From a phage: a DNA stretch of 64,000 nt. The position numbers were made by a program, and so were the translations under genes. Below are positions 2,993 through 26,723 of this stretch, in pieces (positions within the stretch are counted from its first letter, which is position 1; the number at the start of each line of letters is the position of its first letter). The stretch lies in assembly GCA_020773975.1 (NCBI GenBank), contig GCA_020773975.1_3638.1; one strand, 5' to 3'. The notes under the pieces are model-generated. The model searched no databases. It had not been told where the DNA came from and saw only the letters and a list, made by a program, of their open reading frames with translations.

Positions 2993-4081
2993 TTAAAAAT
3001 CCCAGATTTCTTCTTCTGCATCATTCACTGTGGTGTTAACACGATAATCTGTGTTAGACATTTCTTGGTTAGCCGTCTGCTGTAGCGCAGGATTCATCCA
3101 TACTTGCATAAACGGCAAAGGGTCTTTGGAAGGAGGGTTGAAGTCTCTATCAAATCCAAAATGATCATAGATAGGAGAACAATTATAGTCAACCCACTCT
3201 TTCAACAATGGTTCGTTAAGGCCAATGATTGCTCTACCATCACTGAAGATATAGTGACTCCAACTATACTCTTTTAGTCTAACTTCGTCAAGAATTTCTT
3301 TCAATTCATGTTTGATGGCATTAAAGCTGTTCAACCATACAGGGTCTTCTAACAGAATTTCAATAATTGCCAAGTCGTTCTTTGTGTGGAGAATCTCATC
3401 AAGCATTATTTTTTGCACAAGTTGTGCCACTTGAACAAAGATCCCTTGTTCAGCCAAGGCAAATGTGCACGCAAAACTGGATATGAACTCTATAGCTTCT
3501 AGGCCAAGCAGGGCAAACATAGCTCTCAGAATGCCTCTACGGGCTTCTTCTTTATCTATAGAAGCAGGATCCAGTCTGTATTTAGCACCAAGAACTTCCA
3601 GTTCGCGCATATATTTGACAATGACACCAGATCTGTTTAAAACTTCTTGGTTGTTTTGTACTTCCTCAATAATTTCTCGTGCATTTGGCAAACACTGTCT
3701 GACAATTTCTGAGTATGTCAAAGCATGAAGCACTTCGATTTCTGCCTGTTTCATCATCAAAGCGTATAATTCACTGTTTGTGATGAATGGGGCAAATAAA
3801 CAGATAATTGATTGCGCTGCAACACTATCAGCTTCCCATTGCCACATCAAAGTTTGCACCATAACATCATAGGTTGATTTACTGCATGTGGTAAAATCTG
3901 AAATTGATTGTACTAAATCAACTTCGTCTTCTGACCAGTCTTGCTCTTTTTGTTTTTTATATAAATCGAAAAGTTTTGGGTATTTTTTATTAATGGAGTC
4001 ATACATCCCCATCTGCTGACCAAGAAACAGAGGGTAATCCCCAGTTTTATGTGCTGTGTTTTCTGTATTGAATAATGCCAT
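2993..4081 (-). CDS. nrdB: Ribonucleotide reductase small subunit NrdB
   Basis: 362 aa; ferritin-like R2 motifs (EAIEFISSFACTFALAEQG, C-terminal tail ending EEEIWDF). Confidence 0.75.
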   Translation of the reverse strand: MALFNTENTAHKTGDYPLFLGQQMGMYDSINKKYPKLFDLYKKQKEQDWSEDEVDLVQSISDFTTCSKSTYDVMVQTLMWQWEADSVAAQSIICLFAPFITNSELYALMMKQAEIEVLHALTYSEIVRQCLPNAREIIEEVQNNQEVLNRSGVIVKYMRELEVLGAKYRLDPASIDKEEARRGILRAMFALLGLEAIEFISSFACTFALAEQGIFVQVAQLVQKIMLDEILHTKNDLAIIEILLEDPVWLNSFNAIKHELKEILDEVRLKEYSWSHYIFSDGRAIIGLNEPLLKEWVDYNCSPIYDHFGFDRDFNPPSKDPLPFMQVWMNPALQQTANQEMSNTDYRVNTTVNDAEEEIWDF

Positions 4082-4121: not shown

Positions 4122-7100
4122 TTACAATGCACAACTCTCGCAGTACGGATCTTCAACTGAACTGTCTGCAATCAAAGGATAGTTCTTTTTAGTTTCTTCC
4201 TCAGCTTGTTTCTTCGCGTGAAGTTCCGCTGTCAAAGAATCACCAGCACCAACCTTAGAGTTTAGATAGTACCATGTTTTCATACCCACTTTTGTTGCCT
4301 TGATAAGATATCCTAGCTGTTCTTTCATAGAAATCTTACCATCTTTGTGTTTGGTGTAATCAAGATAGAGATCTGCACTGATCGCCTGTCCAGTAAATTT
4401 CTGGAACAGGGCATAAATATCTATCAGATCATTTGTTGGTGTATCCCAAGCAGATGTGTAGTAATCTTTTAATTTTTCATAATCAGGAACGATAAAAAGA
4501 ACCTGACCTTGAGGTGATTTTTTAAAGATCACATGATCACGAACAGGGTATATACCATTTGTGGTGTTTGTTGCCAAAGACGAACTCTCGTTCGGCATGT
4601 AGGCTTCCAGAACACTGTTCCTGATCCCACCAAAATCAACAATCTCCTTGCGCAAGGACTCCCAATCCTGTTTGAGTGTAGGATCCTTCACCACACTATC
4701 AATCGCTTTGTTGTAAGTATCAATCGGTAGCCAGCCAGATGGGTATTTTGTTTTACCAATCCACTCACAAACACCACGTTCTTTAGCTAACCGCAGACTT
4801 GCCTTATGAAGGCTGTAGCTGTGCAATTCAGCTAAATCATGTACCAACTGTTTGCTCTCAGGAGAACCATAAGGAACTCTATGTGTCGCAATATAATGTG
4901 CCACGTTTGTGATGCCAACACCAATAGACCTACGTTTTTTAACTGTGCTCTCCATATTTTCATACGGATAGGTCATGATATCCATCACGTTGTCAATCAT
5001 GAGCACAGTATAGTATGCCACATCTTCATACTCTTCTGGTTTAACCCTGCCAGCAACCAACGAGGCCAAGAAGCATAAAGCAACTTCACCATCTTCAGCA
5101 TCATACTTGAAGAGGTTACGCATATCTGAATAACCTTTTGTTGGGAGTGATATTTCTTGGCATTGCCCAGTTAGCAAGCCATTAAACACTCCCATATGAC
5201 GTTTTGGCTCAGAAAAACAGTAGGTGTCATCTCTGCGACCATCATCCTTAATACCAACTATTCTTACAAAATGCCCAGCATTCCTGTTAGGTTTGTGTTT
5301 TACCAACACCAGACGGTATAACTTCAAGCCCATTTCTAACAATTTTTGTGTTTCGGTACTTGAGATAAGTAATCTGAAAGCGTCTTTAGTGTTAAAAACC
5401 CCGTAATCTCCAGAGCCATTGTTCAAAGGAAGTAGCTGCGGTCCAGATTTGCTTGCTAAAACAATTTTGCTGTGTACCCCCACCTCTTGAAGAAGGCGTT
5501 GTATCTTAACGAGGAAATTTTTATTTACAGATGCACATGTAAGTTGTTGATTATCACCATTACGGTAAACGCACCCATCAGCATCTAAATAACCAGCAAG
5601 CCATTCAAGTCTGGAATCTAGAGTGTATTCACTGCTAGGCACAAAAAATTTTGTTTTTAAATTATCTTTATAAACCAGAGTGTGTCTATCTTGGAGTTCT
5701 TGGGTTGAAATCTTAAACTCCCCACGAAAACGGCTCAATAAATGTTTTTTACCACCATAGAGATACACTAGCTTTCTATTTTCGCTAACTTCACAACCAT
5801 CACCACTGTAAAATCCGTTTTCATAGGCTAAATCAAGTACCTTAGAACCATGTACCACTTGAGATAATGTGAATTTTACCAATTTATCCCCTGGTTGAAG
5901 ATCTATTGCACGTTTTTCAATCACCCTACCTTTCCCTACAAAACCTTCTTGGATGTAGAATTTATGGTAAGGAGTACATACAAGTTCCTGCCCAGAGTCT
6001 GTTGTCACAGTGATTAGTTTTTGGTCACTACCTGTTTTTCTGACAACAACCTCTGACCACTCTTCACCATTCCACACCTCAACACTACGATCTTTAAGGT
6101 CAGAAATGGTTTGATACCCATCCTTAGTAAGAATTTCCGTTTCTGGTGCAACACACAAATTGCTTGAATAAATAATTTCCTTAAATGGGGTGTGTCTATT
6201 CATCTCGTCAGTCCAGTAAACATAAAGTCTACCCGTTTCTGTACGCTGGGTAAGTATCTCTATTGCCAAATCTCTTGCCTTAATCCAAGTTTTTGGAATA
6301 GAAGCATCCTTGGCAATCTTATCAACTTCAGAGTCAAACTCCTCCATTGTCATAGTGAACATCCCATCATGGAGTTGTGGGGCATCTTTATAAGATACCA
6401 GCATCCAATCCAGGTTTTTCGCAACACGATTGACAAAAGATTTGTTAATACCAACGGAATAATCCATTGTGTTAATCCGCTTAGATGTCACAGTCATAGG
6501 GTTACGTAAGCGAATTAATTCATCAATTTGTGGATCAAGAGCTAAGAAAGAAACTGTTGCTGAACCACCTCTGGACTGTTGCCTATTTTCTTTTACCCCA
6601 GCATCAATACCACGATAATAAGGTAGTTTACCCATATGCTTGATTGTGTTTCCTCTAACACCATCACCAATAGAGCGAGATGCTAGATAATAACCGATAC
6701 CAGCTTGATTAACAGTCATCGTATATGCAACTTCTCGTGCAACACCGATAGATTTAGCTGTATCGTCTGCCTTAATTACACAACACGAAGCATATCCTGT
6801 TTTTCCGGTACGAAGCCCGTTAAGGTATGGTGTCGGGGCGTTGATTTTAAGATCAGACAAATATGTGTACAATTTTGTCACATCTTTAATACGACGATCC
6901 TTAGGCATATTCTTCATAACTGCCATCGCCATCCCCATAAACATCATCTGTGGGGATTCAAAAAGGATGTCATTAACAGCGTCCTTAATACCGTACTTAT
7001 CACGGAACTGTTTCAATACAGCATACCCATAAGACAGATCTTTACTATGGTCGATGACAGCTTCTAATGCTGTTAACTCCAAGCCTGTGTATTTCATATC

Positions 7101-7430
7101 TTCCCAATAGCCTGAATCAACCATACGGTGATAGAAATTTGGCAAACTTGGAATTTTTGTGAACCCACCAAAGGCTTCTTTATAAATCTGCCCGACTAAA
7201 ACTCTACCAGCCATCCGTGCATGTGCTTCATCTTTACGGCTAATACATGCATCTATAATAGCTTGGTTTACTTCTTTTGTTGTGCAACCATCATATAGTC
7301 TTTTATATGCGTCAAGAGCAATGTGTGACCAGTTGCCGTTGCCATCATCACCAAAAATGGCAGCTTTGTTAAGGCGTTCAGGGTCGAATACTACCTCTGA
7401 CCCATCGCTTTTAATAACTTTAGTAATCAA
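4122..7430 (-). CDS. nrdA: Ribonucleotide reductase large subunit NrdA, containing an intein
   Basis: 1102 aa, far longer than a normal NrdA. N-terminal ATP cone; active-site SSNL / CQEISLPT split by a ~331 aa insertion. Confidence 0.8.
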   Translation of the reverse strand: MITKVIKSDGSEVVFDPERLNKAAIFGDDGNGNWSHIALDAYKRLYDGCTTKEVNQAIIDACISRKDEAHARMAGRVLVGQIYKEAFGGFTKIPSLPNFYHRMVDSGYWEDMKYTGLELTALEAVIDHSKDLSYGYAVLKQFRDKYGIKDAVNDILFESPQMMFMGMAMAVMKNMPKDRRIKDVTKLYTYLSDLKINAPTPYLNGLRTGKTGYASCCVIKADDTAKSIGVAREVAYTMTVNQAGIGYYLASRSIGDGVRGNTIKHMGKLPYYRGIDAGVKENRQQSRGGSATVSFLALDPQIDELIRLRNPMTVTSKRINTMDYSVGINKSFVNRVAKNLDWMLVSYKDAPQLHDGMFTMTMEEFDSEVDKIAKDASIPKTWIKARDLAIEILTQRTETGRLYVYWTDEMNRHTPFKEIIYSSNLCVAPETEILTKDGYQTISDLKDRSVEVWNGEEWSEVVVRKTGSDQKLITVTTDSGQELVCTPYHKFYIQEGFVGKGRVIEKRAIDLQPGDKLVKFTLSQVVHGSKVLDLAYENGFYSGDGCEVSENRKLVYLYGGKKHLLSRFRGEFKISTQELQDRHTLVYKDNLKTKFFVPSSEYTLDSRLEWLAGYLDADGCVYRNGDNQQLTCASVNKNFLVKIQRLLQEVGVHSKIVLASKSGPQLLPLNNGSGDYGVFNTKDAFRLLISSTETQKLLEMGLKLYRLVLVKHKPNRNAGHFVRIVGIKDDGRRDDTYCFSEPKRHMGVFNGLLTGQCQEISLPTKGYSDMRNLFKYDAEDGEVALCFLASLVAGRVKPEEYEDVAYYTVLMIDNVMDIMTYPYENMESTVKKRRSIGVGITNVAHYIATHRVPYGSPESKQLVHDLAELHSYSLHKASLRLAKERGVCEWIGKTKYPSGWLPIDTYNKAIDSVVKDPTLKQDWESLRKEIVDFGGIRNSVLEAYMPNESSSLATNTTNGIYPVRDHVIFKKSPQGQVLFIVPDYEKLKDYYTSAWDTPTNDLIDIYALFQKFTGQAISADLYLDYTKHKDGKISMKEQLGYLIKATKVGMKTWYYLNSKVGAGDSLTAELHAKKQAEEETKKNYPLIADSSVEDPYCESCAL
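5163..6155 (-). mobile_element. Intein in NrdA (LAGLIDADG-type homing endonuclease domain)
   Basis: Starts with Cys (CVAPETEIL) directly after SSNL and ends ...HMGVFNGLLTGQ before the +1 Cys of CQEISLPT. LAGYLDADG motif present. Terminal GQ instead of the usual HN. Confidence 0.65.
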
Positions 7431-7705
7431 ACATTCTCCTTCTCTTCTACATCATATTTAGCCAAAAATAAAGCAGCTTCATCATTAAGATCCTCTTTTA
7501 AAGAGTCTCTATCATCTGCAAGGATATTAATTACTTTTCCTGTGTATGCGTCATAATAAACATCATCATACATCTTGCTATCATCTATAAGATCATTAAA
7601 ATATAACCACCCAGCATAATGATATTTATCATCAAAACCGCGATCTTTCCATTTGGTCTTTTCTCGCGCCATTATGCCCCCAGACCAAACATATCGCCAA
7701 GCCAT
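7427..7705 (-). CDS. Hypothetical protein
   Basis: ORF in operon context; no recognisable motif. Confidence 0.35.
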   Translation of the reverse strand: MAWRYVWSGGIMAREKTKWKDRGFDDKYHYAGWLYFNDLIDDSKMYDDVYYDAYTGKVINILADDRDSLKEDLNDEAALFLAKYDVEEKENV

Positions 7706-8148
7706 GATTCATCTTTAGAATCAAAGTTAATATCTAAACTTTGCTTTCTTTCTCCACGCTTTGTGTATTTTCTGACATTGACTTTTTCTGCCACAGGAAG
7801 ATCGTATGGAAGATCAATAACAAATTCCATATCCTTTTCTGAATACATCTCTACATCAAGAATATCTATACCATTATAGATTCCTGCGTATGGATAATCA
7901 TTCCGCATATCACCTACAAAAATTGTTGTTTTTCTATAGGTTGATGGGAAATTGGCACAACGAACATTCTTGTCGTGTAGCATTGTAATATGCTTAGGAA
8001 GTCCATCAGCATCACTGACCTGGAATCCAATAGCATACAACGCAGCACGAAGTTGATTTTCTTCTTTAATATTAAAACCGGGGATTGTGCGAAGAAAGTC
8101 CAGCGTCACAGAAATATGCTGTGTAGGTTTACGTTTTGTTTTTTTCAT
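7672..8148 (-). CDS. Hypothetical protein
   Basis: ORF with upstream promoter-like element; no recognisable motif. Confidence 0.35.
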   Translation of the reverse strand: MKKTKRKPTQHISVTLDFLRTIPGFNIKEENQLRAALYAIGFQVSDADGLPKHITMLHDKNVRCANFPSTYRKTTIFVGDMRNDYPYAGIYNGIDILDVEMYSEKDMEFVIDLPYDLPVAEKVNVRKYTKRGERKQSLDINFDSKDESWLGDMFGLGA

Positions 8149-8206
8149 ATATTCTCCACCACATTTGCAAACTAGGGGACAAATAGCCCCTATACATCAT
8201 GCAAAC

Positions 8207-8235
8207 ATAATATGTATTTTTATTAAATTTGTCAA
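8207..8235 (-). promoter_or_regulatory. Sigma70-like promoter (TTGACA-17-TATTAT) for the leftward genes
   Basis: Consensus -35 and near-consensus -10 with 17 bp spacing on the minus strand. Confidence 0.4.
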
Positions 8236-10118
8236 CCTGCCACAACATTGTTGGGAACTAGTTGGCGGTATTGTACCCACCCACGTAGATTTCCTGACCA
8301 CATATTTCCTTTTCTATCCATATGCGTCACACCGTCACTTGCCTGTCCATCCCACCACAATGAAGCCTCATTCTCCAACATAGGTGTTGCAACATGCTCA
8401 AAAGGAGATGCGTGTACCTTATCACCACTTGTTAGCTTTTTATAGATATCAAGGGCTTTATCCTTAGTGTTGTTAAGCACGCGATAAGATACTTGTGCAC
8501 AACAAGACACAGAAATAGCAATTGCCTCATCAACACGTAGCATCACAGGCTCGTTGTTTTCGTCTAAAACACAATACCCATGAAATTCTCCAACACCATC
8601 ATCAACATCAATTGTGTAGAGGTGCTCTACATATGGGGTGTGCCACTGACCAGGTTCTAATGGCTCAGGTACAGACTCATCCACAGCTTGTTTCATGAGA
8701 GATGCTAGTTTATGGATCGTCGGGTCTGCATCTCCATCTGCACGAAGATGGAAAAAATTATTCCAATCCGTAGCAGTAACAACAGTTTTCATCCTCTGGA
8801 ACGGTTCCAGTAAGCGATTTGCCACCTGCTTGTGGTATCCAGCTTGTGAGTATGCTTCGGCAAAACGTGATGCACTTAAAGCCGCCAATTTCCACCAATC
8901 CTCTGGGGAATATCCAGCATCTATTTCAGCATTGTGATTGCCATCATCTTGCATACCAGGTTTATTCTTACCAAATTGAACAGGCATGGCAGGATTTTTT
9001 CGTACTTGCTCAATCATCTTAGAGATTGGAATTGCTCTGCTGCTCATAGCATTCCTGCTAAACAGTCTATGCGTCATAAGTTCACAGTTCCCACTGATAA
9101 ATACGACACCTTCCCTTCGAACAACCACGTAGGAGGTGTCTACACTTACACAATACACCTTCCCTACATAGTCTTGGTACTCGAAGATATCTTTATCCTT
9201 CCTTAAACTGATGTAGTTCGTAACCTTAAATGAGCATTTATACAGAGAGCCATACTTACGAATATTCACAGAGTCACCATTCAGGTGAGCTAACACCTGA
9301 ATTTGGTTAATCAGTGTTTTGGATGTGGTGTTATACTCCATGTTGTCAATATTGCCGTCTGAGAGTAGCAATGCTCTCTTAAATAAGCGGTACTGCTCAA
9401 TATTTAACCCTCTGATATATTCTGGTAATTTCTTCTCCCCTTCTTCAGTGTAACATGCTTCTGTTAATGGGTTTTTATTAAAACGGATAACTATATCGTC
9501 CCCATATGTAGAGGTGCTATATTCGTATCCACACTCTTCAAGGATACGTGTAACTTCCTGTGCCTTCCGGGGCTTTTTAAAGTGGAAGTTTACCTTATCC
9601 CCCTTTTCTGGAGTATGTCCATCAGCAGCAAACCAAACACAAAATTCAATCTCTGCATCAGAAAGGTCACACTTTACATCCATTACTCCAGATTGCTCAA
9701 TACGTAATGTCCCGTAGTCTTTTACAAGTTCCTCGGCAAGAATCGTCTTACTCACAAATTTACCCCCAGTAGTCCTTTTTTTCGTGAGGACTCGATGCTT
9801 GTCTGTAACAAGCATGGGGAACTTCTTCTTGTTCAGAGATACCATCCGATGATGGCCTTCGTTCTCTATGTGTGCTGAGGGGGTTACAAAGCTAATAGTC
9901 CCTGTTGTATCATCATACTGTGCTACCTTGGCATTGAGTGCAAATACTTCCTTGAAAGACCTGAACTCTGGTAATTCAGAGTTAATCTGACTGAGTATCT
10001 CTGTCTTCTCGTCAAAGCAGTGAATAATGCGGGGGTATTCCAGCTCAAAAGTGGTAATTCTGATACCTTGTGGGGAAATACTGTCAGCTACGATACGCAC
10101 AGAAATCTGATTATTCAT
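8232..10118 (-). CDS. ThyX-like (flavin-dependent thymidylate synthase family) protein containing an intein
   Basis: Extein sequence TTFELEYPRIIH / CELMTHRLFSRNAMSSR resembles the ThyX core (RHR-type motif, here THR) and FHLRADGDA resembles the ThyX LRAD motif. Family assignment is from memory of motifs. Confidence 0.45.
   Translation of the reverse strand: MNNQISVRIVADSISPQGIRITTFELEYPRIIHCFDEKTEILSQINSELPEFRSFKEVFALNAKVAQYDDTTGTISFVTPSAHIENEGHHRMVSLNKKKFPMLVTDKHRVLTKKRTTGGKFVSKTILAEELVKDYGTLRIEQSGVMDVKCDLSDAEIEFCVWFAADGHTPEKGDKVNFHFKKPRKAQEVTRILEECGYEYSTSTYGDDIVIRFNKNPLTEACYTEEGEKKLPEYIRGLNIEQYRLFKRALLLSDGNIDNMEYNTTSKTLINQIQVLAHLNGDSVNIRKYGSLYKCSFKVTNYISLRKDKDIFEYQDYVGKVYCVSVDTSYVVVRREGVVFISGNCELMTHRLFSRNAMSSRAIPISKMIEQVRKNPAMPVQFGKNKPGMQDDGNHNAEIDAGYSPEDWWKLAALSASRFAEAYSQAGYHKQVANRLLEPFQRMKTVVTATDWNNFFHLRADGDADPTIHKLASLMKQAVDESVPEPLEPGQWHTPYVEHLYTIDVDDGVGEFHGYCVLDENNEPVMLRVDEAIAISVSCCAQVSYRVLNNTKDKALDIYKKLTSGDKVHASPFEHVATPMLENEASLWWDGQASDGVTHMDRKGNMWSGNLRGWVQYRQLVPNNVVAG
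9087..10019 (-). mobile_element. Intein in ThyX-like gene (~311 aa, endonuclease-like domain)
   Basis: Begins CFDEKTEIL, ends ...VVFISGN followed by +1 Cys; degenerate LAGLIDADG-like segments (FCVWFAADGH, LLLSDGNID). Confidence 0.55.
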
Positions 10119-10438: not shown

Positions 10439-10632
10439 CTTCCTCTCTTTTTTATCTTAAACTTTGTTTGCGGATCCATACCCGCTTTAAAAACAAGATA
10501 TCTTGTAAGAATATCATTACACATATCACTGGTAGCTTTAAAAGAGATTAAGAAGTCCTCATCCTCTGTGAAAACTTCCACCCAATCCCCATATTTTACT
10601 ACAAAATCACCTTTTGTGCATCGTCTAATCAT
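10435..10632 (-). CDS. Hypothetical small protein
   Basis: ORF only; translationally coupled to neighbours. Confidence 0.3.
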   Translation of the reverse strand: MIRRCTKGDFVVKYGDWVEVFTEDEDFLISFKATSDMCNDILTRYLVFKAGMDPQTKFKIKKRGR

Positions 10633-11234
10633 GCTATGTCTAAAACAAAATCACGTATTGTATACCAATCATCTGTTTCAAGGTCTAGGGATGTTTTTAA
10701 TTCTTCAGACTGATCATAAGGTGTTTTAAATTTAATTTTAATAACCTCTGGACCAAACTGATTAAGGAACTCATTCCTATCATCAATAATAACATCAACA
10801 TCTACCCCAGCTTTATGCTTTGTTGCATAGAAAGCATGACCGGAACCAAGCTCTAAGCTGAAAAACTCTTCTGTTTCTCTTTTTAGAAAGCGCACTTTAG
10901 ATGAAAAATGACCTTTCATACAATAAGAAACAAAATGATTAAAATGACCAGCTTTAGCCCATGCAGCCACTGCTTCAACTGCACCGGGGAGAGGCTTCAA
11001 CTTATCGTAAAGATAGGGATCCTCCCAAAACTCATAAGGACTAAGCTGATGCACCTTCGCAGGTGGGAAATACTTAGAAACATTGTAATACAGCATACCT
11101 TGCTGGTTTGGTGGTGGTAATGATAAATCCATTTTAACACCATAAACCTTTTCCAACCACTCAATCCAAGGTGTCCCAGAATCAACAAATGTCAAATCCA
11201 CATCAATTCCGATCTTAAGCGTATTCACCTTCAA
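10629..11234 (-). CDS. HAD-superfamily 5'(3')-deoxyribonucleotidase-like protein
   Basis: N-terminal DxD-type motif (GIDVDLTF) typical of HAD phosphatases and nucleotidases. Confidence 0.45.
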   Translation of the reverse strand: MKVNTLKIGIDVDLTFVDSGTPWIEWLEKVYGVKMDLSLPPPNQQGMLYYNVSKYFPPAKVHQLSPYEFWEDPYLYDKLKPLPGAVEAVAAWAKAGHFNHFVSYCMKGHFSSKVRFLKRETEEFFSLELGSGHAFYATKHKAGVDVDVIIDDRNEFLNQFGPEVIKIKFKTPYDQSEELKTSLDLETDDWYTIRDFVLDIA

Positions 11235-11844
11235 ACACTCCCCCTGCTGCCAAAATGTTTTCTAAAACTTTAGCCTTATCCATACAATATTTGTGGATCC
11301 TTTCTTCCACGCAGATAGCATCCTCACTGTCCAAATCCATTTTGATCTTCTCTACTTGGCCTTTCAACCAAGCATGGTGTGCTTCCAGTTCTGTTTCAAA
11401 CGTACCTATGTGCTTAGGATAAGGTTTTGCTAAGACAACCGCTCGCCACTTTTCTTTATTTCTTACTTTAACTGTCCCTATGAGGCCACCACTCTTTGTT
11501 CTTGCTCGTATTGGAAAGTTCACAGCCAACCACTTTGGAACAAAAACCGCGTTTTCAGGATTAAAAATGGTTGTGCCTACCTCCAGGCTAATGTATCTTC
11601 CTGGGTATCCATATTCAAGGAAATATTTTTCAAAATTGCTAAATGTTAACCATTCATCGCAAACTGATTGGTTGGATTCTTCCTCTTGTCCATACACATG
11701 TTCGATAAGATATTTCCAAGCTGCATACGCTCCACGGGACTTACCTTTTAAAGCCTCTTGATCTGAATCGTCCACAGCAATACCGTACAATAAAATACCT
11801 TTCTTATTCATTGTGAAAGCTCCGCAGCGGTAAACACGAACCAC
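11215..11844 (-). CDS. AP2-domain DNA-binding protein (freestanding homing-endonuclease-like)
   Basis: GTVKVRNKEKWRAVV...IGTFETELEAHHAW matches the AP2/ERF-like fold common in phage homing endonucleases; no clear HNH motif. Confidence 0.4.
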   Translation of the reverse strand: MVRVYRCGAFTMNKKGILLYGIAVDDSDQEALKGKSRGAYAAWKYLIEHVYGQEEESNQSVCDEWLTFSNFEKYFLEYGYPGRYISLEVGTTIFNPENAVFVPKWLAVNFPIRARTKSGGLIGTVKVRNKEKWRAVVLAKPYPKHIGTFETELEAHHAWLKGQVEKIKMDLDSEDAICVEERIHKYCMDKAKVLENILAAGGVFEGEYA

Positions 11845-12410
11845 TTATGGATTGACTTGGCACAGTCTTCCATTTTACCATCAATATTCTCGAAATCTCT
11901 TTCGTACCCTCGGATCCCATCTAAATAGAGCCAATTACGACTATCATTTCCCCAGTCACAACCTTCTCTGTGAATACGTGCCAAGAAGAATTTACCACCA
12001 GTTTCATAAGCATAGTTGGAAAGCTCAAGGATCTCTTCCTTAAAACCACCATCTGAAAAAACAACCAACCATGCCTCTTGATGGTTTTTCTTTAAATTCT
12101 CTACAGCAGCTTTGCCAAAAGCATTCTGTCCGAAAATTGGTTTAATCACATTCTCTGAACAATGGATCATCCATTCTCGTGGGGAGACATGTTCTCCATC
12201 AATTTGCAGGTAAGGACAAGGTTTTTCTTTGTATCTACGGTCATAAAGACTGTTCCACAAATCTTTTGAGACTCCAGCAGATCTGATAGCAACTTCAAAA
12301 AGGAGTTTCTTCACTTCTTCATGAAACACACCAGAGATGTTCTCACTCAAATAAGAACAAATAGCGTCTTTTCCAGCACCTGCTGGTGCATTTAAAACAA
12401 GAATATGCAT
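11808..12410 (-). CDS. P-loop nucleotide kinase (dNMP kinase-like)
   Basis: Walker A-like NAPAGAGKD near the N-terminus; ~200 aa. Confidence 0.45.
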   Translation of the reverse strand: MHILVLNAPAGAGKDAICSYLSENISGVFHEEVKKLLFEVAIRSAGVSKDLWNSLYDRRYKEKPCPYLQIDGEHVSPREWMIHCSENVIKPIFGQNAFGKAAVENLKKNHQEAWLVVFSDGGFKEEILELSNYAYETGGKFFLARIHREGCDWGNDSRNWLYLDGIRGYERDFENIDGKMEDCAKSIHKWFVFTAAELSQ

Positions 12411-23880: not shown

Positions 23881-24459
23881 TCAATGACCATCAGCGGTGA
23901 AAACGTCTTTTTCCATGCACATTTGGTATGCTTCTGGTAGATCCAAAATTCTCCCATGTACATCCCAACCCACATCAAGGATCCGTCCTTTCGCACTGTA
24001 AGAGCCGTGGCAATGACCGTGCAAGAACACAGACCCAAAGTGGGATTTATTCCATGCGGCAAACGGATAATGACTCATACAAATTTTTTGTTCATAATCG
24101 TTAAATTCGTAATAATCGCACACATCATGACCACGTTTTTTGAATGTTTTAATCGCATCAAAATTGTCATGATTACCTTTGACAAGGACGATATGCCCAA
24201 CAAGTTCATCAAGAATTTCTTCAAGTCTTTTAATAACTTGCTTGCCATGACCGAAACAGAAATCACCAAGCACAAAAGTCACAGTGTCAGCATCTGCACC
24301 ATGGTTAAATTTCACTGTGAGGTCTTGGTTCATTTGTTCAACTGTTTTGTACAAATCACCACGAAAACGTTTTGAACTCTCAAAGTTAAGGATGTTTTTA
24401 TGCCAGTAATGTAAATCAGATGTTACACGGTATTTGGTTCCCATTTCTCTCTCCCACAC
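23881..24459 (-). CDS. Calcineurin-like metallophosphoesterase
   Basis: Motifs GD...G, GNHD and GHCHG. Confidence 0.6.
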   Translation of the reverse strand: MWEREMGTKYRVTSDLHYWHKNILNFESSKRFRGDLYKTVEQMNQDLTVKFNHGADADTVTFVLGDFCFGHGKQVIKRLEEILDELVGHIVLVKGNHDNFDAIKTFKKRGHDVCDYYEFNDYEQKICMSHYPFAAWNKSHFGSVFLHGHCHGSYSAKGRILDVGWDVHGRILDLPEAYQMCMEKDVFTADGH

Positions 24460-24469
24460 ACAACAAAAA

Positions 24470-24748
24470 TCACTGTCGCTCTAACAAATCTTCTGCTGGA
24501 TAAGCATACAGCATGTATTCCCAACCACGATGATAGTGTCTGTGCTGCCAGTTGATTAATTTTAGGCACACAATGTTCACCACGTTCCTGTCCCCATGGA
24601 TAAAAACACAAGTCTCAAGGATTGACTTTCCAAACTCAACATGACTGTCAAGATACAGTTTTGTGTTGTATCTTTTTTCAGCATCTAGCATGATCTGTTT
24701 CAGAGCCAGAAATGCCTCACGACACACAGATTTTTCATCAGAAATCAT
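24470..24748 (-). CDS. Hypothetical protein (first gene of the leftward unit; start trimmed to internal Met)
   Basis: C-terminal 92 aa of ORF 24470..25060. The N-terminal part of the ORF runs through the repeat-rich non-coding region and is Cys-rich junk. Confidence 0.3.
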   Translation of the reverse strand: MISDEKSVCREAFLALKQIMLDAEKRYNTKLYLDSHVEFGKSILETCVFIHGDRNVVNIVCLKLINWQHRHYHRGWEYMLYAYPAEDLLERQ

Positions 24749-25188
24749 TTTGATATTCAAGCATTTCCCCCACACAGGCAACCACGTAAATCGTGTCTGA
24801 TCACCACAACACAATCGGTTTGAAACAAACCTGTTTGACACACAACTGAATCGTCGTAGTGTCATGCCAAAACACAGACAGACATGATACGACGAAGATC
24901 CCCACACAGAGTCACATAGTGACTTGTGACAACCCGAATCCATGATTGAGATCAACACACAGAGACAAACCTGTAGGGTTTGTTGATGTGGGTTTATCTC
25001 AGAATGGCTCATGAGGGTTAGATGGTCACAAGCTATCAGCGCAGTGAGCATCTTACACACTCACGTATTGCCTGAAGAGTCTCATCGACTCACACTTTCA
25101 GGCAAAACACTATGAACTCTATGATTCGAAATCATCGAACCATACGATTCGACTCAATCGAATCATATCAACAAAAATATTTAAAATC

Positions 25189-25222
25189 AAGTCTTGACAT
25201 TCTTCAAGACTTAGTGTATTTT
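25189..25222 (+). promoter_or_regulatory. Sigma70-like promoter (TTGACA-17-TATTTT) overlapped by a 9-6-9 palindrome
   Basis: TTGACA at 25194-25199; palindrome AAGTCTTGA-cattct-TCAAGACTT spans 25189-25211. Confidence 0.45.
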
Positions 25223-25253
25223 AAATAAATTTTATATAATATATTATTATATA

Positions 25254-25384
25254 TATAATACGTAGTATTATATTAAATTATATTATATAATTTATATTAT
25301 ATTAGATCATATTAAATTATATTATACGTAGTATAATATATTATATTAAATAGATCATAGTATTATAATACGTAGTATTATATT
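25254..25384. repeat. AT tract with three copies of an ~20 bp repeat containing palindromic TACGTA, and clustered GATC sites
   Basis: ataatacgtagtattatatt at ~25255 and ~25365 (exact) and a variant at ~25322. GATC at 25305, 25353, 25390 and 25413. Confidence 0.55.
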
Positions 25385-25427
25385 TAATAGATCTTATATG
25401 TTAGTTTAATTTGATCAGTTAGTATTG

Positions 25428-25471
25428 TGTCCCTGAAACGGGGACATACCCATGTCCCTGAAACGGGGACA
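25428..25471. repeat. Two tandem 19 bp hairpin repeats (tgtccc-tgaaacg-gggaca), 25 bp period
   Basis: Exact direct repeat at 25428-25446 and 25453-25471; each is an inverted repeat GTCCC/GGGAC. Confidence 0.6.
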
Positions 25472-25481
25472 TATGGGAGGG

Positions 25482-25510
25482 TTGACATTGTGTGGGGTTA
25501 TGGGTAGCAT
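25482..25510 (+). promoter_or_regulatory. Sigma70-like promoter (TTGACA-17-TAGCAT) for the rightward gene block
   Basis: Consensus -35, weaker -10, immediately downstream of the hairpin repeats. Confidence 0.4.
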
Positions 25511-25917
25511 TCTCGGTGTTGGATTACACACCGGAGTTTGCCTTGAAATCTATTGTTGGGGGTTTCCATGTAAATCCGAAACCTGGGTCGTACATCGCTG
25601 TCCCGACAGAGTGGGTTTTTGATGAACGCTTATCACCAAGCGATCTGCAAAGACTGATACGCTTGTTGTGGAGGTACGAGTATTTCAAGAATCTGAACCC
25701 TCTGGGTGGGGAACTGGTATTCTTTCCGTCACAACAATCCTTGTGTGGCCTGTTGGGGTGGAATGAAAACTCACGAACCAAAGTGTCTGAATTTCTGTCC
25801 CGGATGGAGAGCTTTGGTTATATCAGGCGTGTTAGATCAGGATTTCAGGATTCTGATGGTAACGTGAAACCAAGAAATTATATTATCGTCAATCGTATCA
25901 GAGGGGATAAATCATGA
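25492..25917 (+). CDS. Hypothetical protein (true start probably TTG ~25543 after GGAG)
   Basis: The ORF-track start lies inside the promoter spacer. Stop overlaps the start of the next gene. Confidence 0.35.
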   Translation: MGLWVAFSVLDYTPEFALKSIVGGFHVNPKPGSYIAVPTEWVFDERLSPSDLQRLIRLLWRYEYFKNLNPLGGELVFFPSQQSLCGLLGWNENSRTKVSEFLSRMESFGYIRRVRSGFQDSDGNVKPRNYIIVNRIRGDKS

Positions 25918-26723
25918 ATATTCGTTTGAGTTTGAACAAGCTACATGTGCCAGTTGACCATTTCACATTTAGTGGTGGTGAGGAGCAGATTAAGATCGAT
26001 ATGCGTCATGTTCCGCATGGTTCGATAGGTTTTGTTGATATCTTCGCTAGACTCAAGAACTCACAGGATGTGATGTGTTTGGCACTGCTTGTTGATGCAG
26101 TTAATCGTCTTGGCAATTTGGATGTTGGTGTGGAAAAGGTTTTACACCTGCCGTACATTCCGTATGCTCGACAAGACCGAGTTATGAACCCTGGAGAATC
26201 TCTGTCGGTGAAAGTCTTTGCCACAATGATTAACTCGCTTGGTTTCCACAAAGTCATCGTCGATGATCCACACAGTGACGTATCCGCAGCACTGATTGAT
26301 AACGTGAAAATTCGTTCTCAGACTGATTTGTTCTTGAACATGAATTTTGATTTTGATCTGCTTACGGACGAATCGCTTGTGTTGGTTGCTCCAGATGCAG
26401 GTGCACGCAAGAAGACCCAGAAGGTTGCTGATACCTTGGAACTATCTGTGGTTGAAGCAGGTAAAGTCCGTGATGTTTCGACAGGGGCAATCACAGGTAC
26501 AACAGTGTTTGGTGATGTCGATGGGAAGACATGCCTGGTTGTCGATGATATCTGCGATGGTGGGTTTACGTTTACAAACTTAGCTCAAGCCTTGAAAGCT
26601 GCTGGTGCAAAACGTGTTATTTTGTATGTTACGCATGGAATTTTCTCTCGTGGGAAAGAATTTATTCTCGACGGTGGTGTTGACGAAATTTATGCGTATT
26701 ACGACTGGACAGAAAATTTTTAA
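25914..26723 (+). CDS. Ribose-phosphate pyrophosphokinase (PRPP synthetase) family protein; candidate ADP-ribose pyrophosphate synthetase
   Basis: Prs motifs PYARQDR and PRPP-binding VDDICDGG; 269 aa. Confidence 0.65.
   Translation: MNIRLSLNKLHVPVDHFTFSGGEEQIKIDMRHVPHGSIGFVDIFARLKNSQDVMCLALLVDAVNRLGNLDVGVEKVLHLPYIPYARQDRVMNPGESLSVKVFATMINSLGFHKVIVDDPHSDVSAALIDNVKIRSQTDLFLNMNFDFDLLTDESLVLVAPDAGARKKTQKVADTLELSVVEAGKVRDVSTGAITGTTVFGDVDGKTCLVVDDICDGGFTFTNLAQALKAAGAKRVILYVTHGIFSRGKEFILDGGVDEIYAYYDWTENF

Follow-up and report, generated by a model that had tools for sequence, protein, structure and literature searches.

The locus described here raised the question of whether a phage protein that departs from the signature of flavin-dependent thymidylate synthases (ThyX) is still a thymidylate synthase. 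It lies in a stretch of 64,000 nucleotides of phage DNA (GenBank assembly GCA_020773975.1, contig GCA_020773975.1_3638.1), hereafter the window, in which a minus-strand open reading frame (ORF) encodes a ThyX-like protein interrupted by an intein. The original prediction, which was made from the letters of the window alone, noted that the protein reads THR where the ThyX motif RHR is expected and that the part downstream of the intein (the C-extein) is unusually long, and it suggested a divergent enzyme that might be used for modified pyrimidine synthesis. The results presented here indicated that the gene probably encodes a genuine flavin-dependent thymidylate synthase, which makes thymidine monophosphate (dTMP) and belongs to a large, distinct ThyX subfamily in which one module of the chain has been relocated. 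We place the probability of this reading at roughly 0.78. The coordinates of all features can be found in Table 1; residue numbers refer to the spliced protein unless stated otherwise.

The window is derived from an rV5/PVP-SE1-like myovirus. Over the gene of interest it was 96% identical at the nucleotide level to the "putative thymidylate synthase" gene of Escherichia phage vB_EcoM_TH18 (TH18), and three marmot-derived phages, which are Vequintavirinae like TH18, were likewise 96% identical over the gene. An intein-free allele that was found in public data (P0001, 318 amino acids [aa], 97% identical) aligned to both sides of a 311-residue insertion. Because this allele spans the same junction, the boundaries of the insertion could be fixed: P0001 reads ...EYPRIIH-S-ELMTHR..., and the window protein reads ...EYPRIIH, followed by the insertion (CFDEK...FISGN) and then by CELMTHR.... 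Joining the two exteins yielded a protein of 317 aa, which reads ELMTHRLFSRNAMSSRA and in which EYPRIIHCELMTHRLFSRNAMSSRAIP is found. The N-extein supplies an N-terminal strand, followed by a second strand and the start of a helix that lead to the THR motif; an AlphaFold2 monomer model placed the strands at residues 6-14 and 20-29.

The insertion had the features of an intein with a homing endonuclease domain. It scored 23.7 bits against Pfam LAGLIDADG_3 (cutoff, 22.5), and it starts with Cys, carries the block B motif TxxH as TDKH (intein residues 72-75), ends in ...SGN, and is followed by Cys at the +1 position (nt 9084..9086). The penultimate residue is Gly instead of the usual His, giving a Gly-Asn terminus. 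Homologous inteins occupied the same site in three distant family members (P0133, P0174, and P0212), proteins that are only 43-47% identical. As judged from these sequence features, the insertion is a precise in-frame intein whose removal should restore an uninterrupted host protein: the 311-aa intein would excise itself from the precursor and join the 33-aa N-extein to the 284-aa C-extein, producing the 317-aa enzyme. The insertion point is 4 residues ahead of the THR motif; functionally essential sites are where inteins are typically found.

To place the motif, we built a profile from 98 diverse relatives and used HMMER to align it with Thermotoga maritima ThyX (TmThyX; PDB 1kq4, in which chain numbering equals native numbering plus 12). 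T38 aligned with R78 of TmThyX, H39 with H79, R40 with R80, S43 with S83, N45 with N85, S48 with S88, and R50 with R90, and A51 fell on Y91 by position. RHRX7S has been given as the ThyX signature (Myllykallio 2002, as quoted in PMC2826268). The ORF contains the string ELMTHRLFSRNAMSSR, with THR at nt 9066..9074, and the corresponding stretch reads THRLFSRNAMS; thus, the His, the second Arg, and the Ser are kept and the first Arg is replaced by Thr. Among the 98 relatives, Thr occupied position 38 in 94 (the others had Lys [2] or Arg [2]), and the neighboring columns were similarly uniform (H39, 98/98; R40, 85/98; S48, 97/98; S49, 94/98; R50, 98/98; A51, 98/98). The family signature is T-H-R-x2-S-x-N-x2-S-S-R-A in place of R-H-R-x2-S-x-N-x2-S-x-R-Y. 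Its last position corresponds to the conserved Tyr after S-x-R (Y91 in TmThyX), which was Ala in all 98 relatives and in 24 of 24 chromosomal bacterial homologues. This Tyr-to-Ala change was absent from the original prediction.

The remaining signature residues were also kept in the 24 chromosomal homologues, and the same signature was present in Caulobacter phage Karma, EBPR siphovirus 2, and Flavobacterium phage FPSV-D7 (about 30-35% identity), which were among the most distant phage homologues retrieved. Because it is conserved across diverse phage and chromosomal homologues, THR is a hallmark of the family rather than noise, and the Tyr-to-Ala replacement is a second hallmark. The third motif residue (position 40) varied in subclades, in which Lys, Gly, Asn, Cys, or Gln produced THK, THG, THN, THC, or THQ (members include P0130, P0213, P0160, P0184, P0186, and P0200). 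These variants often had Pro, Asn, or Cys in place of Ser43 and Lys at position 44. The few members in which position 38 is Arg or Lys, or in which R40 is missing, were searched for compensatory changes, but A51, K119, and R307 did not co-vary with these substitutions.

A wrong splice junction, a misalignment that hides an RHR, or a sequencing error might have created the THR, and to this we assign next to no probability. The intein-free allele P0001 has the same junction and the same THR, the profile alignment places the Thr directly on R78, and the Thr occurred in 94/98 relatives plus 24/24 chromosomal homologues. Canonical RHR was found in only two of the 98 relatives (P0189 and P0224), both of which still carry Ala51. 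These observations refuted the artefact explanation. Moreover, no alternative RHR was found elsewhere in the spliced protein by profile alignment to TmThyX, so the reading of THR at the RHR position stands.

The second peculiarity of the protein is its length. The C-extein, predicted at about 280 aa, measured 284 aa, and the 317-aa spliced protein is longer than the solved ThyX chains (216-270 aa, tags included). With 39.9 bits against Pfam Thy1 (PF02511; cutoff, 24.8), the spliced protein belongs to the ThyX fold and not to an unrelated family. However, the match was partial: residues 22-174 covered profile positions 59-191, about 140 residues followed, and the first third of the profile was unmatched at the N terminus. 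No Pfam match was found for residues 176-317. The protein also fell below the cutoff of the TIGR02170 thyX equivalog model (42.4 versus 87.9 bits); together with the THR and the greater length, this agrees with the proposal that it is divergent and not a standard ThyX.

A direct search of the spliced protein against the PDB returned nothing relevant, and matches were obtained only with the family profile. With all PDB sequences as the target, the profile matched only ThyX chains (E values down to 3.5e-7), and the matches were not collinear. Profile positions 214-259 aligned with native TmThyX residues 20-63 (DLSAVRAARVSF...HGHETPFEHIVFT), positions 24-53 with residues 61-90, and positions 105-175 with residues 128-200. 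A profile of the C-terminal segment alone (59 positions) gave TmThyX residues 21-61 as its top ten PDB matches (E = 0.0017; 177,635 sequences). When residues 176-264 or 213-264 were moved in silico before residues 20-175, the Thy1 score rose from 39.9 to 53.7-54.5 bits and profile positions 13-191 (of 191) were covered in one stretch. The TIGR02170 score rose from 42.4 to 57.4 bits, covering positions 19-205 of 211. Thus, the helical module that precedes the RHR helix in a collinear ThyX follows the core in this protein.

The relocated segment includes equivalents of TmThyX S30 (S233, 98/98), H53 (H258, 98/98), T55 (S260), E58 (E263), and H59 (H264). Two elements around it are specific to the family. 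A W-H-x-P motif stands at the junction of the core and the module, with H182 and P184 in 98/98 relatives, W181 in 88/98, and the motif in 24/24 cellular members. The C-terminal tail has the pattern N299..G-W-x-Q305-x-R307, in which N299 and Q305 are near-invariant and R307 is invariant among the relatives and present in 23/24 cellular members. A beta-meander insert (approximately residues 187-216) and a longer tail loop were found in phage members only; the chromosomal versions have neither. The length noted in the original prediction is therefore real, but the "C-terminal extension" is not an add-on: judging by the profile alignments, it is mainly the canonical N-terminal helical module, now located after the core, and in addition a short conserved tail. 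We refer to a relocated module, or a circular-permutation-like order, and not to strict circular permutation: the canonical first strand may correspond either to the N-terminal strand or to the C-terminal beta-meander, and each of three re-ordered constructs gave a Thy1 match that began only at position 13.

The gene was also observed in split form. In phage FPSV-D7 (MW421580; L007, 3498..5431), the homologous gene consists of two ORFs separated by a 274-aa ORF that resembles a GIY-YIG homing endonuclease. The first ORF (239 aa) contains EINTHRMLSKNTSSSRAIP and ends in ...GEWHIPFIEIIED, and the SPFEH module and GFIQYR tail are encoded in the second (129 aa). The break is located exactly at the junction of the collinear core and the relocated module, just past WHxP. 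In Escherichia coli phage ECP26, "thymidylate synthase" pieces of 245 aa and 97 aa are present in BFVD. The split may reflect an intron or an enzyme made of two subunits, and the FPSV-D7 gene hints at gene fission and fusion, as opposed to duplication and deletion, as a possible origin of the rearrangement.

Most residues of the canonical active site have counterparts in the subfamily. The dUMP-binding and -activating residues of TmThyX (S88, R90, R147, and R174) correspond to S48 (97/98), R50, R124, and R148 (98/98 each); R124 (nt 8814..8816) is the equivalent of R147, which binds phosphate, and R148 (nt 8742..8744) is the equivalent of R174, which activates the uracil (PMC8316439). S30, H53, T55, E58, and H59 of TmThyX contact the flavin and stack on the folate (PMC11940539). 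The first four of these flavin/folate-site residues are represented by S233, H258, S260, and E263, all of them invariant or near-invariant, although here they are located in the C-terminal portion of the protein. In total, about 14 invariant and 34 near-invariant positions persisted across 40-76% identity, and most active-site equivalents were among them.

How widespread this type of protein is was examined with several searches. The protein matched the PHROG 85 "thymidylate synthase" profile over its full length (residues 3-315; E = 2.3e-108). A tblastn search found matches in 1,036 phage records, 1,017 of them with at least 80% coverage, and the phages included rV5-like, phAPEC8-like, ICP1, Pakpunavirus, N4-like, and phiCbK-like phages. 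A word-indexed protein search yielded 6,843 matches, and an exhaustive search of 50%-identity representatives yielded 5,141 clusters at E<=1e-3 and 2,295 at E<=1e-30. We also scanned GTDB species representatives with a 9-sequence alignment, which gave 285 confirmed loci, and analyzed the gene contexts of the best 80 by ORF clustering and Pfam confirmation. All 80 encoded a family member, and 72 had the strict THR...S-(S or T)-R-A pattern.

In 30 of these best 80 loci the gene was in a chromosomal housekeeping context, and ribosomal, secY, or ftsZ neighbors ruled out a prophage or contamination origin for them. Fifteen loci, from Solirubrobacterales and related Actinomycetes metagenome-assembled genomes (MAGs), had the gene between rpoA and map-adk-secY-...-rplR; this set includes a complete 2.7-Mb chromosome. 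In 11 loci, from Eremiobacterota, Vulcanimicrobiota, Acidiferrales, and others (contigs up to 2.2 Mb), the gene followed ftsA-ftsZ. In the two ftsZ loci that were listed fully (L032 and L034), the three genes were on the same strand, and ftsZ and the synthase gene were about 10-13 bp apart. Four Saccharibacteria loci had the order nusG-rplK-rplA-synthase-dcd(-tmk) with overlapping reading frames, as in L051 (synthase, 5989-6942; dCTP deaminase, 6935-7630; thymidylate kinase, 7608-8261), and in a further MAG (L084) the synthase gene was followed by tmk. At proteobacterial loci, the neighbors resembled ribonucleotide reductase (RNR), DNA polymerase, and SbcCD by sequence reading alone; these loci look phage-derived.

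The chromosomal copies kept all of the hallmarks (T38, A51, WHxP, and R307). Thus, the THR-type, module-relocated ThyX is not confined to phages: several bacterial phyla have it on the chromosome, in conserved synteny that differs by lineage. Because in many species the gene is wedged between dcd/tmk on one side and ribosomal or division genes on the other, the chromosomal copies are probably housekeeping thymidylate synthases and not DNA modification enzymes. Of all the data on the likely function, those from cellular genomes carry the most weight.

The conservation and distribution of the family bear on two other explanations. A catalytically dead or regulatory ThyX relic, such as a nucleotide-binding protein, might be expected to lose catalytic residues, and two residues whose mutation cripples TmThyX have indeed been lost. 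We nevertheless regard a relic as very improbable: the invariant and near-invariant positions described above persist, the family comprises more than 5,000 clusters at 50% identity, the gene is kept inside a dcd-tmk operon in the reduced genomes of Saccharibacteria, and the intein sits at the motif, a type of site that is typically functionally essential. The second explanation is a ThyX-fold methylase that acts on another substrate, namely UMP (like PolB), dCMP, or uridine in RNA or tRNA. PolB sets a precedent, and the THC, THQ, THG, and THK subclades hint at relaxed constraint around the nucleotide phosphate site. However, no variation was seen in the uracil-activating R148 (R174 in TmThyX) or in R50 and R124, which bind the phosphate, the neighboring genes encode deoxynucleotide enzymes (RNR, dCTP deaminase, thymidylate kinase, and dNMP kinase), and no RNA-binding domain was detected in Pfam scans of the protein. 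A different substrate is therefore improbable, if a little less so than a relic.

Table 1. Positions of the synthase gene, its parts, and its neighbors in the 64,000-nucleotide window
Feature	Coordinates (nt)	Strand	Basis or remarks
Precursor ORF, ThyX-like thymidylate synthase with intein (628 aa + stop)	8232..10118	-	PHROG 85 "thymidylate synthase," E = 7e-107
N-extein, precursor residues 1-33 (MNNQ...EYPRIIH)	10020..10118	-	Translation; alignment with intein-free allele P0001
Predicted LAGLIDADG-type intein, 311 aa, precursor residues 34-344 (CFDEK...FISGN)	9087..10019	-	Missing from P0001; Pfam LAGLIDADG_3
C-extein, precursor residues 345-628, 284 aa	8235..9086 (stop codon, 8232..8234)	-	Translation; alignment
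Variant ThyX signature THRLFSRNAMSSRA	9033..9074	-	Profile alignment to 1kq4; column counts
Core segment with two invariant Arg	8742..8816	-	Alignment to TmThyX; both 98/98
WHTP, family-specific W-H-x-P at the junction of core and relocated module	8634..8645	-	Conservation
Relocated ThyX N-terminal helical module (VDEAIAISVSCCAQVSYR...KVHASPFEH)	8394..8534	-	Segment profile; non-collinear matches; re-permutation
Family-specific C-terminal tail MWSGNLRGWVQYRQL	8259..8303	-	Conservation; no counterpart in canonical ThyX
nrdB (class Ia RNR)	2993..4081	-	Downstream; Pfam Ribonuc_red_sm; TH18/PVP-SE1 annotation
nrdA (class Ia RNR), apparently intein-containing	4122..7430	-	Downstream; TH18/PVP-SE1 annotation; nrdA comparison
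NT5C-like deoxyribonucleotidase	10629..11234	-	Upstream; Pfam NT5C, 25.8 bits
HNH endonuclease ORF	11215..11844	-	Upstream; PHROG 953, E = 5e-22
Deoxynucleoside monophosphate (dNMP) kinase-like gene	11808..12410	-	Upstream; PHROG 139 deoxynucleoside monophosphate kinase

The gene neighborhood in phages was also one of deoxynucleotide metabolism (Table 1). PVP-SE1 and rV5 have the same gene arrangement as the window, with glutaredoxin and nrdDG genes further along. In N4-like roseophages the gene is two genes from the dCMP deaminase gene (PMC2784036). In phage PaP1 the homologue gp110, which is 51% identical to the window protein and has the same motif, adjoins nrdAB; high gp110 expression and a significant thymidine rise in infected cells have been reported for this phage (PMC5377924). 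The complete TH18 genome contains a single annotated thymidylate synthase, and tblastn searches of it found no ThyA, dihydrofolate reductase (DHFR), dUTPase, or canonical ThyX. Because ThyX yields tetrahydrofolate, a TH18 genome without DHFR fits ThyX chemistry. In the same genome, a TmThyX tblastn query also failed to detect the gene of the window type, which shows how far this pair has diverged.

These data can be set against the modified-pyrimidine proposal of the original prediction. A neofunctionalized ThyX-like enzyme might supply phage DNA with a modified pyrimidine nucleotide; for example, with the reductive-step residues R78 and Y91 altered, water might capture the exocyclic-methylene intermediate and give 5-hydroxymethyl-dUMP. 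We found no support for this proposal and consider it unlikely. The arginines that activate the uracil and bind the phosphate are invariant, and the same hallmarks occur in chromosomal dcd/tmk operons and near ftsZ and ribosomal genes, in bacteria that need plain dTMP. Known phage 5-hydroxymethyldeoxyuridine pathways use ThyA-type enzymes (PMC8989533), hypermodification genes were not noticed in the neighborhood, thymidine itself goes up in the PaP1 infection, and no other thymidylate synthase was found in the phage (tblastn, TH18). Ordinary dTMP synthesis is most likely, and it is the better reading of the two.

By analogy with canonical ThyX, a homotetramer that binds FAD where its subunits meet, the spliced protein would act as an oligomer that binds FAD, and NADPH would reduce the flavin. 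Methylene-tetrahydrofolate would give its CH2 via flavin N5 to C5 of dUMP, which Arg148 would activate, and the reduced flavin would then reduce the exocyclic methylene to produce dTMP and tetrahydrofolate with no need for DHFR. In the infected cell, the enzyme would raise the dTMP supply beside the neighboring RNR, dNMP kinase, and nucleotidase.

Several points weigh against the conclusion that the protein is a genuine thymidylate synthase. R78 and Y91, both of which are held to be important in TmThyX, are replaced. R78 faces N1/C2=O of the reduced flavin and has been described as stabilizing FADH- (PMC11940539), and it is among the residues that hydrogen-bond dUMP (PMC3498832). Y91 is a proposed general acid and gates the active-site loop via H53, and its mutation slows flavin oxidation about 1000-fold (PMC8316439, PMC11940539). 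In addition, the TIGR02170 equivalog cutoff was not reached, no biochemical, genetic, or structural study of any subfamily member was found in the literature, and the PaP1 thymidine result is correlative. If the protein is a thymidylate synthase, the roles of R78 and Y91 would have passed to other residues or would be dispensable. The family-specific invariant residues R30, K119, H182, and R307 are candidates for taking over these roles, although this is speculation.

A broader proposal is that the THR/SSRA module-relocated proteins form a second architectural class of flavin-dependent thymidylate synthase, which serves as the housekeeping enzyme in Saccharibacteria, Solirubrobacterales, Eremiobacterota, and others and as the thymidylate synthase of more than 1,000 phages, and which works without R78 and Y91 and has its own invariant set (R30, K119, H182, and R307) instead. 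We offer this proposal tentatively and would rate its chances as somewhat short of even. If it is true, active-site geometry, kinetics, and inhibitor sensitivity might differ from those of the textbook ThyX.

The synthase gene was not the only interrupted gene in the window or its relatives. Residues 426-756 of nrdA form a 331-aa insertion that is missing from TH18 (SSNLC, insertion, CEISLPT) and is located directly ahead of the Cys in the NLCxE active-site motif. Its first residue is Cys (CVAPETEIL...), and its last seems to be Gln (...LLTGQ) instead of Asn; this insertion resembles a second intein, though one whose C-terminal residue is unusual. In TH18, the NT5C-like and dNMP kinase-like genes are adjacent (L001, 10401..11000 and 11003..11611), and the HNH ORF between them in the window looks like a free-standing homing endonuclease insertion that is specific to the window phage. 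In Salmonella phage PVP-SE1 (L002, 22808..24203), the synthase gene is intein-less and an annotated HNH homing endonuclease fragment stands immediately after it; because of this arrangement, we conclude that the thymidylate synthase locus attracts different mobile elements in different relatives.

In TH18 (ON075799; L089/L090/L001), the terminase large subunit gene appears in the annotation as three pieces grouped around an HNH homing endonuclease, and the anaerobic RNR large subunit gene nrdD is also annotated in three pieces. These split genes suggest either more introns, inteins, or homing endonucleases in this phage group or breaks in assembly or annotation. Elsewhere in the window (approximately 24000..26000), the GC skew switches from about -0.19 to +0.12 in the vicinity of 25 kb; the ORFs up to about 25.1 kb are mostly on the minus strand, and plus-strand ORFs begin near 25.5 kb. 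A divergent boundary between transcription units would fit this pattern.

The annotation of the genome is unaffected by our results, as the gene is already labeled thymidylate synthase in close relatives. The interest lies in the family as a whole. ThyX serves as a model of methylene transfer by flavins and is also a target for antibacterials, and mechanistic proposals assign specific roles to R78 and Y91. The subfamily appears to be functional because it is chromosomal in several phyla, is found in dcd-tmk operons, and is present in more than 1,000 phages; a huge subfamily without R78 and Y91 and with a rearranged chain would be an experiment made by nature that tests which residues the enzyme cannot do without. 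The subfamily escapes the curated thyX equivalog model, and RHRX7S-type motif filters of earlier surveys may exclude part of it. Therefore, the reported distribution of ThyX, and calls of genomes as "thyA/thyX-less," may be biased.

We could not find a prior description of this architecture, and one may exist. Full-text literature searches, confined to papers outside subscription journals, returned no description of a permuted or THR-type ThyX, of the relocated module, or of subfamily biochemistry, and a sequence search of the PDB found no solved structure of the subfamily. "ThyX2" (PMC10733785) is something else. The papers that we found on the PHROG 85 family use "ThyX" by annotation only, and the altered motif and chain order are unmentioned in them.

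The closest known proteins are the phage members of PHROG 85 (rV5 gp102, PVP-SE1 gp133, N4 gp30-type, ICP1, PaP1 gp110, and phiCbK-like), of which the window protein is a full-length member with 51-76% identity. It shares their motif, architecture, and RNR-linked neighborhood; the members mostly lack an intein, whereas the window copy has a LAGLIDADG intein beside the motif. This intein resembles other LAGLIDADG inteins of phage nucleotide metabolism in its N-terminal Cys, TxxH, LAGLIDADG domain, and Asn followed by Cys, as well as in its insertion at a conserved active-site motif, but it has Gly where the penultimate residue is usually His.

ThyA-type enzymes and their derivatives (T4 gp42 and the SPO1/ViI dUMP hydroxymethyltransferase) hold the same metabolic position and are the known route to modified pyrimidines, but their fold and mechanism are unrelated to those of the window protein, and no ThyA homologue was found in TH18 by tblastn. 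PolB (Streptomyces cacaoi, 4p5a) is a ThyX-fold UMP/dUMP methylase of polyoxin biosynthesis. It keeps the canonical chain order and sits in an antibiotic gene cluster, whereas the subfamily is found in deoxynucleotide and housekeeping contexts. Canonical ThyX proteins (PF02511/TIGR02170; T. maritima TM0449, 1kq4/1o26; Mycobacterium tuberculosis, 2af6; PBCV-1 A674R, 2cfa/4fzb; Helicobacter pylori, 3ah5) are like the window protein in Pfam score, fold, and most active-site residues, although the window protein falls below the TIGR02170 cutoff and has Thr for the first Arg and Ala for the Tyr. They are about 220-250 aa long, carry the helical module ahead of the core, and lack the WHxP junction and the N..GW.Q.R tail, whereas the subfamily proteins are 270-340 aa long, encode the helical module after the core, and have both the junction and the tail.

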